Virus record (IMG/VR): IMGVR_UViG_3300032105_000042
Location: 15,693-79,692 of that record
Source of the DNA: a virus
Strand: one strand, 5' to 3'
DNA length: 64,000 bases
Positions 11,972-17,902 of the stretch are shown in pieces. The notes beneath the pieces are model-generated. The model searched no databases. It saw only the letters and a list, made by a program, of their open reading frames with translations, and was not told where the DNA came from. How positions within the stretch are numbered: the stretch's first letter is position 1; every line of letters starts with the position of its first letter. The position numbers and the translations under genes are program-made.

Positions 11972-12047
11972 GTCGAAACTCGGCCTGCCTTGTGCAAGCC
12001 GGGTCCACCGAGCGCTGGCCAGCCCGGTGCTGACGACGACAGGCCAG
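11972..12047 (+). ncRNA. Type II hammerhead ribozyme HH1 (cleavage after C12005)
   Basis: GTC-GAAA-CTCGGC/GCCGGG-TC-CACCGAGC/GCCCGGTG-CTGACGA-C-GAC; pseudoknot CTGGCC/GGCCAG. Confidence 0.85.
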
Positions 12048-12063
12048 ACCATAGGAGGAGATC

Positions 12064-12291
12064 ATGAAAACTTCAGCAAAAGAGTTCTCAGAGGCTTTGC
12101 AGAGCCTAGTCGATCAAGTCATCGATGGTGACGAAGAGTTAATGAACGAGCTCGCGTACGACCCAAAGCTCTTTGGGGATGGATCAACCCAGACGTACAG
12201 CGAGCTTGGTATCCTTACTACGGATGCTGGCTTCGTCCTTCGGACAGCCGATGGTTCCGAGTACCAGGTGACCATTGTCAAGTCTAGTTAG
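12064..12291 (+). CDS. Small early hypothetical protein
   Basis: RBS CATAGGAGGAGATCATG; ends LTTDAGFVLRTADGSEYQVTIV. Confidence 0.8.
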   Translation: MKTSAKEFSEALQSLVDQVIDGDEELMNELAYDPKLFGDGSTQTYSELGILTTDAGFVLRTADGSEYQVTIVKSS

Positions 12292-12354
12292 TCGAAACGC
12301 TCCAACCGGAGCGTCTGCCAGGTGTGAGCTACCTGGCACTGATGAGACAGCTCA
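12291..12354 (+). ncRNA. Type II hammerhead ribozyme HH2 (cleavage after C12315)
   Basis: GTC-GAAA-CGCTCC/GGAGCG-TC-TGCCAGGT/ACCTGGCA-CTGATGA-GAC; pseudoknot TGAGCT/AGCTCA; fully canonical core. Confidence 0.95.
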
Positions 12355-12370
12355 ACCATAGGAGGAGATC

Positions 12371-12547
12371 ATGAGTAAGCTAATCGACATACGGATAACA
12401 GTTTCCGCCCCGGCCGACGCCTGGAAAACGATGGACGACGATGCTTTGGGGGCTGTCACCGAGGCGTTCGAAGACTTGTTTGCAAACTTTGAAATGGAAA
12501 CCCAAGATCTTGCGTCAAAGTATGGTTTCCAGACCAGCGTCGATTAA
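12371..12547 (+). CDS. Small early hypothetical protein (58 aa, not in ORF track)
   Basis: MSKLIDIRITVSAPADAWKTMDDDALG...QTSVD*; conserved RBS; stop abuts HH3. Confidence 0.75.
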   Translation: MSKLIDIRITVSAPADAWKTMDDDALGAVTEAFEDLFANFEMETQDLASKYGFQTSVD

Positions 12548-12614
12548 GTCGAAACCGGGCCAACCAGCCCGGTCTGCCGAGGGATGAGCTCCCGACACTG
12601 ACGATGATAGCTCA
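12548..12614 (+). ncRNA. Type II hammerhead ribozyme HH3 (cleavage after C12574)
   Basis: GTC-GAAA-CCGGGC/GCCCGG-TC-stem I with bulge-CTGACGA-T-GAT; pseudoknot TGAGCT/AGCTCA. Confidence 0.8.
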
Positions 12615-12630
12615 AGTATAGGAGGAGATT

Positions 12631-12912
12631 ATGTTTGATTGGCAAAGGTTTTGTTTCTACAAAGCTATTCCCGATGGGTTTCTTACCCAGCATAAGGGAA
12701 GAACCTTCAACACCTCTTGGGATGGAGCCTGGGTTCTCGATAGCTGGAACGATTTGAACGTCCCCTACTTCACCCGTCCCGGGCGAAAGAAGCGGTTCGT
12801 CGTTCCACATCTCGAACGGCGGCTGATCTCACTAGCAAAGAAAACCGTCGTAACGGTAAAGTCAATACGAAGGAAACGCCTCCCCAAGCATCTGAGGCGA
12901 CGGCACCTCTAG
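12631..12912 (+). CDS. Small early hypothetical protein with Arg-rich tail RRKRLPKHLRRRHL
   Basis: Conserved RBS; stop overlaps HH4. Confidence 0.8.
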   Translation: MFDWQRFCFYKAIPDGFLTQHKGRTFNTSWDGAWVLDSWNDLNVPYFTRPGRKKRFVVPHLERRLISLAKKTVVTVKSIRRKRLPKHLRRRHL

Positions 12913-12977
12913 TCGAAACCGGGCTGGGTAGCCCGGTCGGTTTGATCTGACCTACCAACCCTGACGATGACAGGTCA
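12912..12977 (+). ncRNA. Type II hammerhead ribozyme HH4 (cleavage after C12938)
   Basis: GTC-GAAA-CCGGGCT/AGCCCGG-TC-GGTT..AACC-CTGACGA-T-GAC; pseudoknot TGACCT/AGGTCA. Confidence 0.82.
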
Positions 12978-12998
12978 AGACAACTATAGGAGGAGATC

Positions 12999-13268
12999 AT
13001 GTGTTACATTATCCAGACAGACATGAGTACAGGTCAATCCTCCCAGCCCCTGTTCTGGACTGGGACCGAGGTCGTCGGCATCTGCCGCTCTGGCGAGGCG
13101 AGAGTCTATAGCAGCCGCTCTCAGGCAGCGTCAGCCCTTGCAGCTATCCCCTCGAACGTCGTCCGGTTCTACGATCTACACATACGACCCGAGGGTGAGC
13201 GCTCCCGGTTGCCACAGTTGAGAGGTATCCGTGGGATGAAGGGTAATCCGGGATACGATCTCGGTTAA
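12999..13268 (+). CDS. Small early hypothetical protein
   Basis: Conserved RBS TATAGGAGGAGATCATG. Confidence 0.75.
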   Translation: MCYIIQTDMSTGQSSQPLFWTGTEVVGICRSGEARVYSSRSQAASALAAIPSNVVRFYDLHIRPEGERSRLPQLRGIRGMKGNPGYDLG

Positions 13269-13269
13269 A

Positions 13270-15928: not shown

Positions 15929-15946
15929 AAACCATAGGAGGAGATT

Positions 15947-16510
15947 ATGACATCGCAATCAACCGAGTACGCAGCGACCCCAGAGCCGTGGAAGCTGCCA
16001 CGGAACCACCCGTGGTGGTGCCCCAAGGGTGACCTGCTCCACGTCCCGCGCGCTCTCAGAAGAGCGAAGTGGACCGAGAAGCAGTGGGTGCGGCACCGCG
16101 AGGCTCAGCAGCGGAGACGAAGTGTGTCGTGGCATCGCACAGTCATCAAGACGGACGCCGCCATATTCGCGCCGGTCATCGCCCGAAAAGCCGAGAAGGA
16201 GAGGCGAGCGAAGCGGAGACTGGAGCGGCTAGAAATCAAGGCCGAGAAAGTGAAGCGTCGCCACCTGGAAACAGAGGAGGCCAATCGGGTCCTGGACTGC
16301 ATCGCCACTCGGGCGACCACCGCCCATCGGATAGCGAAGGCCCTAGACCTGGACCAGCGAATGGTTCGTCGCGCAATACGACGGCTGCTGCGAGAGGATA
16401 AGATCGAGAAGACGAGCCCAAAGGTGTACGATCTCTGCGGACGTGGGCAGGCACCCAAGCCAGTACGGAGGAAGCGTCTCCCCAAGCGTCTGCGGCGACG
16501 GCACCTCTAG
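15947..16510 (+). CDS. Basic protein with C-terminal winged HTH and tail RRKRLPKRLRRRHL
   Basis: VLDCIATRATTAHRIAKALDLDQRMVRRAIRRLLREDKIEK wHTH pattern. Confidence 0.7.
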   Translation: MTSQSTEYAATPEPWKLPRNHPWWCPKGDLLHVPRALRRAKWTEKQWVRHREAQQRRRSVSWHRTVIKTDAAIFAPVIARKAEKERRAKRRLERLEIKAEKVKRRHLETEEANRVLDCIATRATTAHRIAKALDLDQRMVRRAIRRLLREDKIEKTSPKVYDLCGRGQAPKPVRRKRLPKRLRRRHL

Positions 16511-16575
16511 TCGAAACCGGGTCAACCAACCCGGTCGGTTGGATCTGACCTACCAACCCTGACGATGACAGGTCA
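16510..16575 (+). ncRNA. Type II hammerhead ribozyme HH9 (cleavage after C16536)
   Basis: GTC-GAAA-CCGGGT/ACCCGG-TC-GGTTGG/CCAACC-CTGACGA-T-GAC; pseudoknot TGACCT/AGGTCA; near-copy of HH4. Confidence 0.85.
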
Positions 16576-16596
16576 AGACAACTATAGGAGGAGATT

Positions 16597-16929
16597 ATGA
16601 CGATCAAGAGACTGAGCCCCGAGATCCCTCTTGAGCAGGACTATGAAGGCAGGTTCGAGAACAAGCTGTGGTGCTACGCCGCCGTCATTCTTGACGTCCC
16701 GGCACATTGGAAAGATCGGTGGGGACTAGGGATAGCCGTGGCGGACAAGCCGGGCTACTTCCCGATCTCGGGCGACTACGCCCACGCCGATTCCTATGAG
16801 GTAATGATGGACCACGCCGACGACCTGAACCAGCAGCGCAGTATCACCCACGCGCAGTCGGCCATTATCATCGCTTCGACCATGGGTGGTCGTGGGGCAC
16901 CCTCACCCCACGACAGGAGGCGAGTATGA
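16597..16929 (+). CDS. Early hypothetical protein
   Basis: Conserved RBS TATAGGAGGAGATTATG. Confidence 0.75.
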   Translation: MTIKRLSPEIPLEQDYEGRFENKLWCYAAVILDVPAHWKDRWGLGIAVADKPGYFPISGDYAHADSYEVMMDHADDLNQQRSITHAQSAIIIASTMGGRGAPSPHDRRRV

Positions 16930-17366
16930 CGACTGACAGGAGCGTGTTTCTGCTGACGGGTTGGGGACGGTTCCTGGCCAACCACCTCTGCGCGTACAAG
17001 GAGAGGCAGCAGTACATCAAGTCCGTCCGAGCCGAGGGTAGCTGGGCCATCATGGCAGCCGACGACTACTGGGCCCTCCAGTACCAGAGGCTGGACTTCC
17101 GCATCAAGCGTGCCCAGTATGCCTTCGGTACATACGGACTCTCCGGGTGCATGTCCTACGGCAAGGATGGGTTTGTACAATGGAGCAGAGAGAGGATTGC
17201 CGAAGAAAACAGGGCTTCCTTCCACAAACACCACAGGATGAAGGCCCACCGAGCAGTCCAGCTCCTGCGAGAGCTCAAGAAAGGAGAGCTCATACTCCAC
17301 CCTGCCACGGAGGTAGACAAGAACCGTGCGAGGGTGGAGACTAGGTACCAGGAGCTACCTTGCTAA
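16926..17366 (+). CDS. Early hypothetical protein
   Basis: ATGA overlap with the upstream gene; stop abuts HH10. Confidence 0.7.
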   Translation: MTTDRSVFLLTGWGRFLANHLCAYKERQQYIKSVRAEGSWAIMAADDYWALQYQRLDFRIKRAQYAFGTYGLSGCMSYGKDGFVQWSRERIAEENRASFHKHHRMKAHRAVQLLRELKKGELILHPATEVDKNRARVETRYQELPC

Positions 17367-17368
17367 CA

Positions 17369-17441
17369 ATTCGAAACCCTGGGCACACCTACCCCCAGGG
17401 TCATCCCAGTGTGAGCAGCTGGGGTCTGATGAGAATGCTCA
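17369..17441 (+). ncRNA. Type II hammerhead ribozyme HH10 (cleavage after C17402)
   Basis: ATTC-GAAA-CCCTGGG/CCCAGGG-TC-ATCCCAG/CTGGGGT-CTGATGA-GAAT (stem II covaries); pseudoknot TGAGC/GCTCA. Confidence 0.95.
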
Positions 17442-17461
17442 ACTAACTAACGGAGGAGAAC

Positions 17462-17818
17462 ATGAATTTCAAGGAACTTGCTCTTAAGCACGTTGTGGAG
17501 GTACTCTCCAAAAACCTCCTTACTCCCCAGACAGCCAGGAAACTCGCGGGCGAGAATGTGGACACCGCGATCCTCAGGAAGGCTCAAATCGTCGTCGGAA
17601 AGATCGTCTCGCGGCCTAAGCAGCGGCTTGTCACCATAGCGAAGCGAGCCGAGCGACGGGCGGCAAAGAAGAAGGTTCGCGCGGAAGCGGCGGCGGCCAA
17701 GAAGACGACGAAGGTCACCAAGGCCAAGAAGACCAAGGCCAAGAAGACGACGAAGGTCACCAAGGCCAAGAAGACCAAGGCCAAGAAGAAGAAGAAGAAG
17801 ACCAAGGCCAAGAAGTGA
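17462..17818 (+). CDS. Histone H1-like Lys/Ala/Thr-rich basic protein
   Basis: AKKTTKVTKAKKTK repeated (42-nt tandem duplication), poly-K tail; RBS ACGGAGGAGAACATG. Confidence 0.75.
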   Translation: MNFKELALKHVVEVLSKNLLTPQTARKLAGENVDTAILRKAQIVVGKIVSRPKQRLVTIAKRAERRAAKKKVRAEAAAAKKTTKVTKAKKTKAKKTTKVTKAKKTKAKKKKKKTKAKK

Positions 17819-17834
17819 CCACTACGAATACCTA

Positions 17835-17902
17835 TGCCGCCTGACGAGCCCCCTCGCTGGGGCGAAACCCGCTGGTCCGCCCAGGGCTGGCGGGTTGCGG
17901 TA
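17835..17902 (+). ncRNA. Type I hammerhead ribozyme HH11 (cleavage after U17896, GUU triplet)
   Basis: TGCCGC-CTGACGA-GCCCC/GGGGC-GAAA-CCCGC/GCGGG-TT-GCGGTA; stem I pairs TGCCGC with GCGGTA. Confidence 0.88.

Follow-up and report, generated by a model that had tools for sequence, protein, structure and literature searches.

Eleven hammerhead ribozymes in a gene block of a marine-sediment phage: probable self-processing of a polycistronic transcript

Why would a phage place a ribozyme at most of the junctions within a run of its genes? The question is raised by a block of 14 small open reading frames (ORFs), in series and all on the plus strand, within a 64-kb stretch of DNA from an uncultivated phage (here called the window) that corresponds to bases 15693-79692 of the linear 79.8-kb IMG/VR record IMGVR_UViG_3300032105_000042, estimated to be 79% complete. 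The block carries ten type II hammerheads (E1 to E10) and one type I hammerhead. We think it probable that the block (about 11.6-18.03 kb) is one transcription unit, which the eleven hammerheads would cut during transcription; processing of a polycistronic transcript by ribozymes appears to be the best available explanation for the layout, and the most likely one. What we infer here from the sequence is the cutting itself, transcription from a single promoter, its early timing, and consequences for stability and translation.

The type II elements all follow the same order: stem II 3' strand, GAAA, stem III hairpin, GUC, stem I hairpin, CUGA(U/C)GA, stem II 5' strand, and a tail that forms a pseudoknot with loop I. 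A hand parse, checked against the sequence, identified CUGA(U/C)GA, GAAA, the A15.1-U16.1 pair, and GUC in 10 of 10 elements, with 3-4 base pairs (bp) in stem II, 6-8 in stem III, and 6-8 in stem I; stem II is GUC/GAC in seven of the ten. None of the 11 conserved core positions varies in any element, although these positions are unpaired, and this invariance argues for catalysis. The paired positions, by contrast, vary together. When the ten elements were aligned with nine from a distantly related phage (G001, described below), 98.4% of cells in the 19-hammerhead alignment paired and 15 of 17 pairs showed compensatory change, which none of 500 shuffles matched; slid controls gave 33-50% pairing. 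Between loop I and its own tail, each element forms a helix of 4-6 contiguous Watson-Crick bp (mean, 5.7), compared to a mean of 2.9 with foreign tails. There are seven different pseudoknot sequences, and the observed sum was reached in none of 5000 shuffles. For E2, E5, E7, and E9, the minimum-free-energy fold is the hammerhead fold.

A first-pass annotation, made from the letters of the window alone, had listed these ten elements by their starts, together with cut sites, covariation of stems and pseudoknot, a shared ribosome-binding site (RBS) downstream, and a closing type I hammerhead; each of these was confirmed, with C17 at all ten of the listed type II cut positions. The Infernal scan with Rfam models that it proposed gave a mixed outcome. 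The Rfam Hammerhead_II model (RF02276), whose consensus order, core, and pseudoknot tail match those seen here, reported E1, E2, E3, E7, and E10 at its gathering score (37 bits); E5 and E6 fell just under it, and E4, E8, and E9 were not reported, so that five elements were either below the gathering score or missed. The misses stem from CUGACGA cores with an inserted nucleotide, from long loops, or from loss at the search filters. We also built a covariance model of our own (R1), with E2, E5, E7, and E8 as its only seeds: searched with filters off over both strands of the 64 kb, it scored the six non-seed elements at 33-50 bits, far from the next-best match at 10.7 bits. All ten elements range from 33 to 83 bits, and over the whole 79.8-kb record R1 finds exactly ten type II hammerheads. 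Two other candidates were rejected. A second CUGACGA at 11944, considered as a nested or alternative hammerhead, cannot form stems I and II and has two extra nucleotides between C11.1 and GAAA; a plus-strand CGAAAC (3933) followed by CTGAYGA (3975) is a chance occurrence to which R1 gives no match.

The type I hammerhead starts 17 nucleotides (nt) beyond the final stop codon, and an intrinsic-terminator-like hairpin follows it at a distance of about 80 nt. It has a 6-bp stem I (UGCCGC/GCGGUA), the core CUGACGA (17841), a 5-bp stem II, GAAA, and a 12-bp stem III. A strict descriptor (CUGANGA, a stem II hairpin of ≥4 bp, GAAA, an A-U-closed stem III hairpin, H17, and stem I of ≥5 bp) matched the window once (17841-17896) and did not match any of 300 random 64-kb sequences. 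The string CUGAYGA-GCCCC...GGGGC-GAAAC occurs in 30 IMG/VR contigs, mostly as part of intergenic type I hammerheads 5' of an RBS. A covariance model (R2) made from eleven type I hammerheads of unrelated phage contigs scored the element at 48.6 bits, versus 13.8 for the next match; the R2 seeds were picked by a pattern that shares this element's stem II, while the parts of the score due to stem I, stem III, and H17 are independent of it. The minimum-free-energy fold is the three-way junction, with 60% of the ensemble. Rfam RF00163 and RF00008 gave no match to 17835-17902 at E values up to 10, probably because the Rfam type I model does not fit a 12-bp stem III; this weakens Rfam membership but not the hammerhead reading. 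We accept the element as a well-supported type I hammerhead, with predicted cleavage after U17896. The ten plus one elements are genuine hammerheads, with covarying stems and pseudoknot. The GCCCC/GGGGC stem II recurs in type I hammerhead arrays on other IMG/VR contigs (L127, four copies; L147, four; L141, two); the L147 copies do not fit the descriptor and could be variants or belong to type III.

The positions of the elements are as regular as their structures. All lie on the coding strand and start 0-13 nt past a stop codon, and stem II of E2, E4, and E9 shares its first base with the G of the preceding TAG. The RBS follows the pseudoknot tail at a distance of 0-11 nt and the element as a whole at 3-17 nt. 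Nine type II elements are followed by ATAGGAGGAGAT(C/T)ATG, and E10 by ACGGAGGAGAACATG. The RBS 9-mer TAGGAGGAG occurs 11 times on the plus strand of the record, all within the block: nine copies follow hammerheads and two follow a different junction structure, the two-hairpin module described below. The first-pass annotation placed a hammerhead at most gene junctions; this holds for E2 to E10, which occupy 9 of the 13 internal junctions, but not for E1, which lies in the 5' leader. The type I element follows the last gene. Four internal junctions are free of hammerheads, and two of these four carry the two-hairpin module.

If all eleven ribozymes cleave, E1 would remove a leader of about 375 nt, E2 to E10 would separate the genes at their nine junctions, and the type I element would free a trailer of about 130 nt that bears the terminator. 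Ten mRNAs are predicted. The first five (12006-12315, 12316-12574, 12575-12938, 12939-13296, and 13297-13606) would contain one gene each, and the others would contain three (13607-14946), one (14947-15650), two (15651-16536), two (16537-17402), and one (17403-17896). The cleavage site of a type II hammerhead lies between stem III and stem I, which would give these mRNAs ends of uniform design: a 5'-OH within the pseudoknotted stem I hairpin, 3-17 nt before a strong RBS of identical sequence, and a 3' stem III hairpin ending in a 2',3'-cyclic phosphate. The benefit, as we envisage it, would be that every cistron has the same insulated translation start and capped ends, and that expression and decay of each gene are uncoupled from those of its neighbors.

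Such a scheme has counterparts elsewhere. In phage T7, RNase III cuts the early polycistronic RNA at intergenic hairpins, producing discrete mRNAs that keep terminal hairpins. In RiboJ-type insulators, an engineered ribozyme directly 5' of the RBS standardizes the 5' untranslated region. Unlike the T7 case, here the RNA itself would cut, leaving 5'-OH and 2',3'-cyclic phosphate ends, with no host enzyme. A close natural precedent was described by Perreault et al. in 2011 (PLoS Comput Biol): in prophages, several hammerheads may lie on either side of one gene or a short gene run, which points to processing of long phage transcripts into single-gene mRNAs, and triple arrays were cleaved in vitro and in Escherichia coli (PMC3088659). 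Type II hammerheads beside phage-like genes also cleave in vivo in Desulfovibrio (PMC8782182). Like the arrays of Perreault et al., which also include types I and III, the window's array has type II elements with a loop I/3'-tail pseudoknot, all on one strand among variable small genes, and its eleven elements delimit ten units of one to three genes. It differs in size (10 + 1 elements in 5.9 kb, compared to the three-member arrays tested), in its uniform array-specific RBS, in the sequences complementary to that RBS that bracket it, in the type I element before the terminator, and in its setting, a free phage contig from marine sediment instead of a prophage of a cultured bacterium.

Several observations weigh against ribozyme processing, or against its extending to every element. 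Stem I has two mismatches in E3 and one each in E1 and E4. Nested folding favors the pseudoknot helix over stem I in E1, E3, E4, and E6, some of which may be slow cutters, and in E1, E3, E4, and E9 a single additional nucleotide is inserted between A9 and stem II (G10.1). Promoter-like sites are no more numerous than expected by chance, which makes the promoter assignment weak. The public runs that contain the sequence of this phage are all DNA runs, from marine-sediment metagenomes of two studies, and none is an RNA run. In the work of Perreault et al., 4 of 18 hammerheads that fit the consensus were inactive in vitro (PMC3088659), and a 2019 review still considers the purpose of bacterial and phage hammerheads undefined (PMC6765202); the benefit outlined above is hypothetical.

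Comparison with a second phage separates the junctions from the genes they join. We found G001 with a pattern that joined the 3' half of a hammerhead to the RBS of this array. It is a complete 95.9-kb phage with direct terminal repeats and is only a distant relative of the window's phage: the DnaB proteins of the two share 44% identity, and no similarity is detectable between the portals. Its 8.5-kb block has nine hammerheads of type II, and the RBS of the window's array occurs there eleven times. Since these are the same modules and the block proteins of the two phages include only one resembling pair (25% identity), the junction module (hammerhead plus ATAGGAGGAGAT RBS) is conserved around different gene cargo.

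This difference in cargo also fits another explanation, that the hammerhead-plus-RBS modules (∼90 nt) serve mainly as recombination joints at which cassettes are swapped, duplicated, or deleted, with cleavage secondary or incidental. Within the window, E4 and E9 are near-duplicates: they lie in a 143-nt direct repeat (D3; 12859-13001 versus 16457-16599, 89% identical) that spans the last ∼50 nt of two different ORFs (g3 and g11), the hammerhead, and the RBS. The repeat is a sign of recombination or duplication at junction modules, and because both elements lie in it, E4 and E9 are not independent. We also compared contigs of related strains from other sediment samples with the block. Junction modules, about 18% of the block, contain 11 of the 18 joint ends in these contigs; four joints inside modules connect 12568 to 16531, 12574 to 12982, 14161 to 15930, and 16576 to 13336, and suggest that cassettes are shuffled there. 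Loose ends show chimeric hammerheads with compatible halves. In one loose end past 12574, stem I reads GGUCGG/CCGACC, as against GGUUGG/CCAACC in E9, a compensatory pair. However, joints at repeats in metagenome contigs can be artefacts of assembly or alignment, and recombination alone would neither hold the cores invariant nor drive compensatory changes in stems and pseudoknot. Single-nucleotide variants among strains keep the pairing in E6 (13578 U>C turns a G-U into a G-C pair, and 13586 C>U turns a C-G into a U-G pair), and strain indels at 13283 and 17392 lie in stem III loops. We consider it unlikely that the modules are primarily joints; recombination there is compatible with ribozyme processing, as a side effect of it.

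A second alternative accepts cleavage and adds ligation. Each unit would begin with the 3' half of one ribozyme and end with the 5' half of its successor, so that the unit ends might rebuild a hybrid hammerhead, or RtcB might join the predicted 5'-OH and 2',3'-cyclic phosphate ends, yielding circular or permuted mRNAs. Stems I and III are self-contained hairpins, a hybrid stem II would pair in seven of nine internal units, and Perreault et al. raised this possibility themselves; they also sought spliced or circular products and found none (PMC3088659). In addition, the variant stem II sequences covary with their own partners (GCC/GGC and AUUC/GAAU) and not with those of the neighboring element, and we regard ligation as very improbable. 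Equally improbable are conserved structured spacers that do not cleave, such as protein-binding or stabilizing hairpins with no useful cleavage rate in the host: the weak stem I or core-adjacent insertions of some elements, and the four junctions without a hammerhead, two of which have a plain two-hairpin module, would fit such spacers, but the preservation of all 11 unpaired core positions in every element is hard to explain without catalysis.

Returning to ribozyme processing, we asked how unusual this array is. The first-pass annotation knew of no description at this density, which overstates its novelty: clusters had been reported (PMC3088659), nine hammerheads are present in G001, and IMG/VR contigs contain 5-9, so that the array does not differ in kind. 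A pattern scan of IMG/VR for GUC/GAC-type hammerheads identified at least 119 stretches; R1 was run on 20 of the 81 loci listed and Rfam on ten of them. Among the loci scanned were arrays of nine hammerheads in 3.1 kb (L037), eight in 3.2 kb (L017), seven in 3.4 kb (L003), six in 2.4 kb (L055), and five in 2.2 kb (L018), all with a similar layout (stop codon, hammerhead, array-specific RBS) but with different genes and RBS sequences. Such arrays are common in IMG/VR, and 10 + 1 is the largest among those we encountered. At Rfam thresholds, roughly half of the elements in arrays like these escape detection, so that arrays are under-counted in viral metagenomes. A search with the DUF2786 protein of the block (g8) gave a single 29%-identical locus, without an informative array, and the block had no BLASTN match among 50,697 GenBank phages. 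The array is an unusually large example of a known arrangement and establishes no new principle; what is new are details, namely, the brackets found in two phages, the junction module conserved around different cargo, and the two-hairpin junction. An operon with eleven ribozymes would be a compact test bed for insulation of translation, mRNA half-lives, and expression gating, with a uniform RBS, two alternative junction designs, and conserved RBS/anti-RBS brackets as its assets.

These brackets are copies of the reverse complement of TAGGAGGAG (anti-RBS). The window's record has three, two of which directly flank the block, 14 nt before E1 and 66 nt after the type I cut. The 5' copy forms 11 contiguous Watson-Crick pairs with the RBS of g1, a feature unique to E1 among the ten elements; in the predicted fold, the resulting helix extends stem II of E1, encloses the whole ribozyme, and masks the first RBS. 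Both phages have this helix in their minimum-free-energy folds. The 3' copy, predicted to be single stranded, would be part of the RNA piece freed by type I cleavage. G001 has four copies of the RBS reverse complement, two of which directly flank its block (G001:C1:12605-12613 and 4082-4090). Its 3' anti-RBS lies just before a terminator and pairs with an orphan RBS-like 9-mer 108 nt upstream, closing a structured domain (z = −5.5); we rejected this structured element as a hammerhead because R2 gave no match and no core order fits. We also rejected the idea that anti-RBS copies are RBSs of minus-strand genes, as they have no start codon at a usable distance and lie outside minus-strand transcription units. 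Anti-RBS brackets were not noticed in the other IMG/VR arrays, whose array ends were not identified.

The brackets led us to a speculative extension, to which we give only a slim chance: that the array is a bounded, self-regulating expression cassette with a 5' clamp as its gate and the trailer as an RNA regulator. The clamp would tie translation of g1 to ribozyme processing, and the ∼130-nt trailer (a 5' hairpin, single-stranded CUCCUCCUAUG, and the terminator) could pair with all eleven copies of the RBS (ATAGGAGGAG). If this is true, the trailer RNA could dampen or time expression of the whole operon, and the clamp would be a natural counterpart of engineered switches in which a ribozyme stem conceals the Shine-Dalgarno sequence. 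In switches of this kind, mentioned in a passage of Felletti et al. 2016 (PMC5052635) that cites Wieland and Hartig 2008, an active ribozyme raises expression. E1 is similar to them in that the RBS is paired in an extension of a ribozyme stem, but it is natural, and its 11-bp clamp plus stem II may not fall apart by itself after cleavage.

Table 1. Features of the block and its flanks in the window (window coordinates; R1 and R2, covariance models described in the text)
Feature	Position	Strand	Remarks
Promoter-like site TTTACA-17-TATATT	11595-11623	+	Consensus scan only; possible start of block transcript
5' anti-RBS GATCTCCTCCTCCTATG	11952-11968	+	Complementary to g1 RBS (12050-12063)
E1	11972-12047	+	Predicted cut after C12005; Rfam 37.5 bits, R1 33.5 bits, hand parse; core CUGACGA, extra C before stem II; pseudoknot CUGGCC/GGCCAG
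g1	12064-12291	+	75 amino acids, no family match
E2	12291-12354	+	Predicted cut after C12315; Rfam 58.2 bits, hand parse; g1 TAG overlaps stem II
g2	12371-12547	+	58 amino acids
E3	12548-12614	+	Predicted cut after C12574; Rfam 40.4 bits, hand parse; extra U after core
g3	12631-12912	+	93 amino acids
E4	12912-12977	+	Predicted cut after C12938; R1 39.9 bits; missed by Rfam
g4	12999-13268	+	89 amino acids
E5	13270-13334	+	Predicted cut after C13296; Rfam 32.3 bits, R1 73.9 bits (seed); stem II GCC/GGC; pseudoknot 4 bp (AGCU/AGCU)
g5	13350-13574	+	74 codons, in-frame TAG at 13383-13385; PHROG 5861 match
E6	13576-13648	+	Predicted cut after C13606; Rfam 30.7 bits, R1 49.8 bits; stem II GCU/GGC; pseudoknot GACCCU/AGGGUC
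g6	13673-13885	+	Three-gene unit g6-g8 (13673-14915), no hammerhead inside
g7	13917-14135	+	Part of three-gene unit g6-g8
Two-hairpin module Ja	14122-14164	+	12-bp hairpin, mini-hairpin GAUAC-GUCA-GUAUC, RBS
g8	14184-14915	+	DUF2786 + DUF7168; part of three-gene unit g6-g8
E7	14919-14986	+	Predicted cut after C14946; Rfam 40.4 bits
g9	15000-15608	+	202 amino acids
E8	15620-15690	+	Predicted cut after C15650; R1 82.9 bits (seed), hand parse; missed by Rfam; all three stems perfect
g10	15707-15883	+	Shares unit with g11
Two-hairpin module Jb	15886-15925	+	Hairpin, mini-hairpin GAUGC-GUCA-GCAUC, RBS
g11	15947-16510	+	Weak, sub-threshold winged-helix matches
E9	16510-16575	+	Predicted cut after C16536; R1 42.9 bits; missed by Rfam
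g12	16597-16929	+	Overlaps g13 at ATGA
g13	16926-17366	+	Overlaps g12 at ATGA
E10	17369-17441	+	Predicted cut after C17402; Rfam 43.7 bits, hand parse; stem II AUUC/GAAU
g14	17462-17818	+	118 amino acids, Lys-rich repeat tail
Type I hammerhead	17835-17902	+	Predicted cut after U17896; descriptor, R2, fold
3' anti-RBS CTCCTCCTATG	17962-17972	+	Predicted single stranded, between 5' hairpin (17897-17956) and terminator
Intrinsic-terminator-like hairpin + T-tract	17980-18028	+	Inverted repeat I5, fold

The two-hairpin module (Table 1) occupies the usual place of a hammerhead; in it, a hairpin of 9-12 bp is followed by a mini-hairpin of 5 bp, a spacer, and the RBS. The stem of the mini-hairpin covaries (GAUAC/GUAUC versus GAUGC/GCAUC), and the module occurs in both phages (in L125, at about 6010-6075 on the minus strand). 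It has no Rfam match and could be a recognition site for a protein or an RNase.

Among the 14 block genes, the only significant family match is that of g8 to DUF2786/DUF7168, apart from the match of g5 to PHROG 5861, a family of unknown function. The in-frame TAG of g5 lies 11 codons into an ORF with a full RBS; the PHROG 5861 match spans it, and a contig from an independent study keeps it unchanged. TAG also terminates other block genes. The g5 TAG may be a nonsense allele, may be read through, or may be bypassed by a restart at ATG 13398; a suppressor tRNA was rejected as the explanation, since the window has no tRNA genes. At the 3' end of g14 (17695-17820), a tandem 42-nt repeat encodes a Lys-rich tail of the KKTTKVTKAKKTKA type, which varies in length among strains and has 9-nt insertions.

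The block lies directly downstream of plus-strand genes that encode a DnaB-like helicase and a protein with a weak, sub-threshold match to the UDG superfamily (Pfam), past a 690-nt noncoding stretch (11280-11970). The first-pass annotation called the block an early region; what its position shows is that it comes after replication genes and the noncoding stretch. The latter contains three copies of the motif (T)CCCTTAT(A/G)T, several GC-rich hairpins, and the promoter-like site of Table 1, and may serve as an origin or have a regulatory role upstream of the array.

Pfam matches indicate that the window's phage is a tailed, siphovirus-like phage. Its structural genes, on the minus strand, encode a portal, a tape measure, a gpJ-like tip protein, and a Mu-F/ADP-ribosyltransferase/protease fusion. 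The last of these (36116-40702) is a 1528-amino-acid protein that combines Mu-F-like head morphogenesis, ADP-ribosyltransferase exoenzyme-like, and prohead protease domains. Also on the minus strand, a ribonucleotide reductase gene (55542-58772) is split by an intein with an HNH endonuclease domain.

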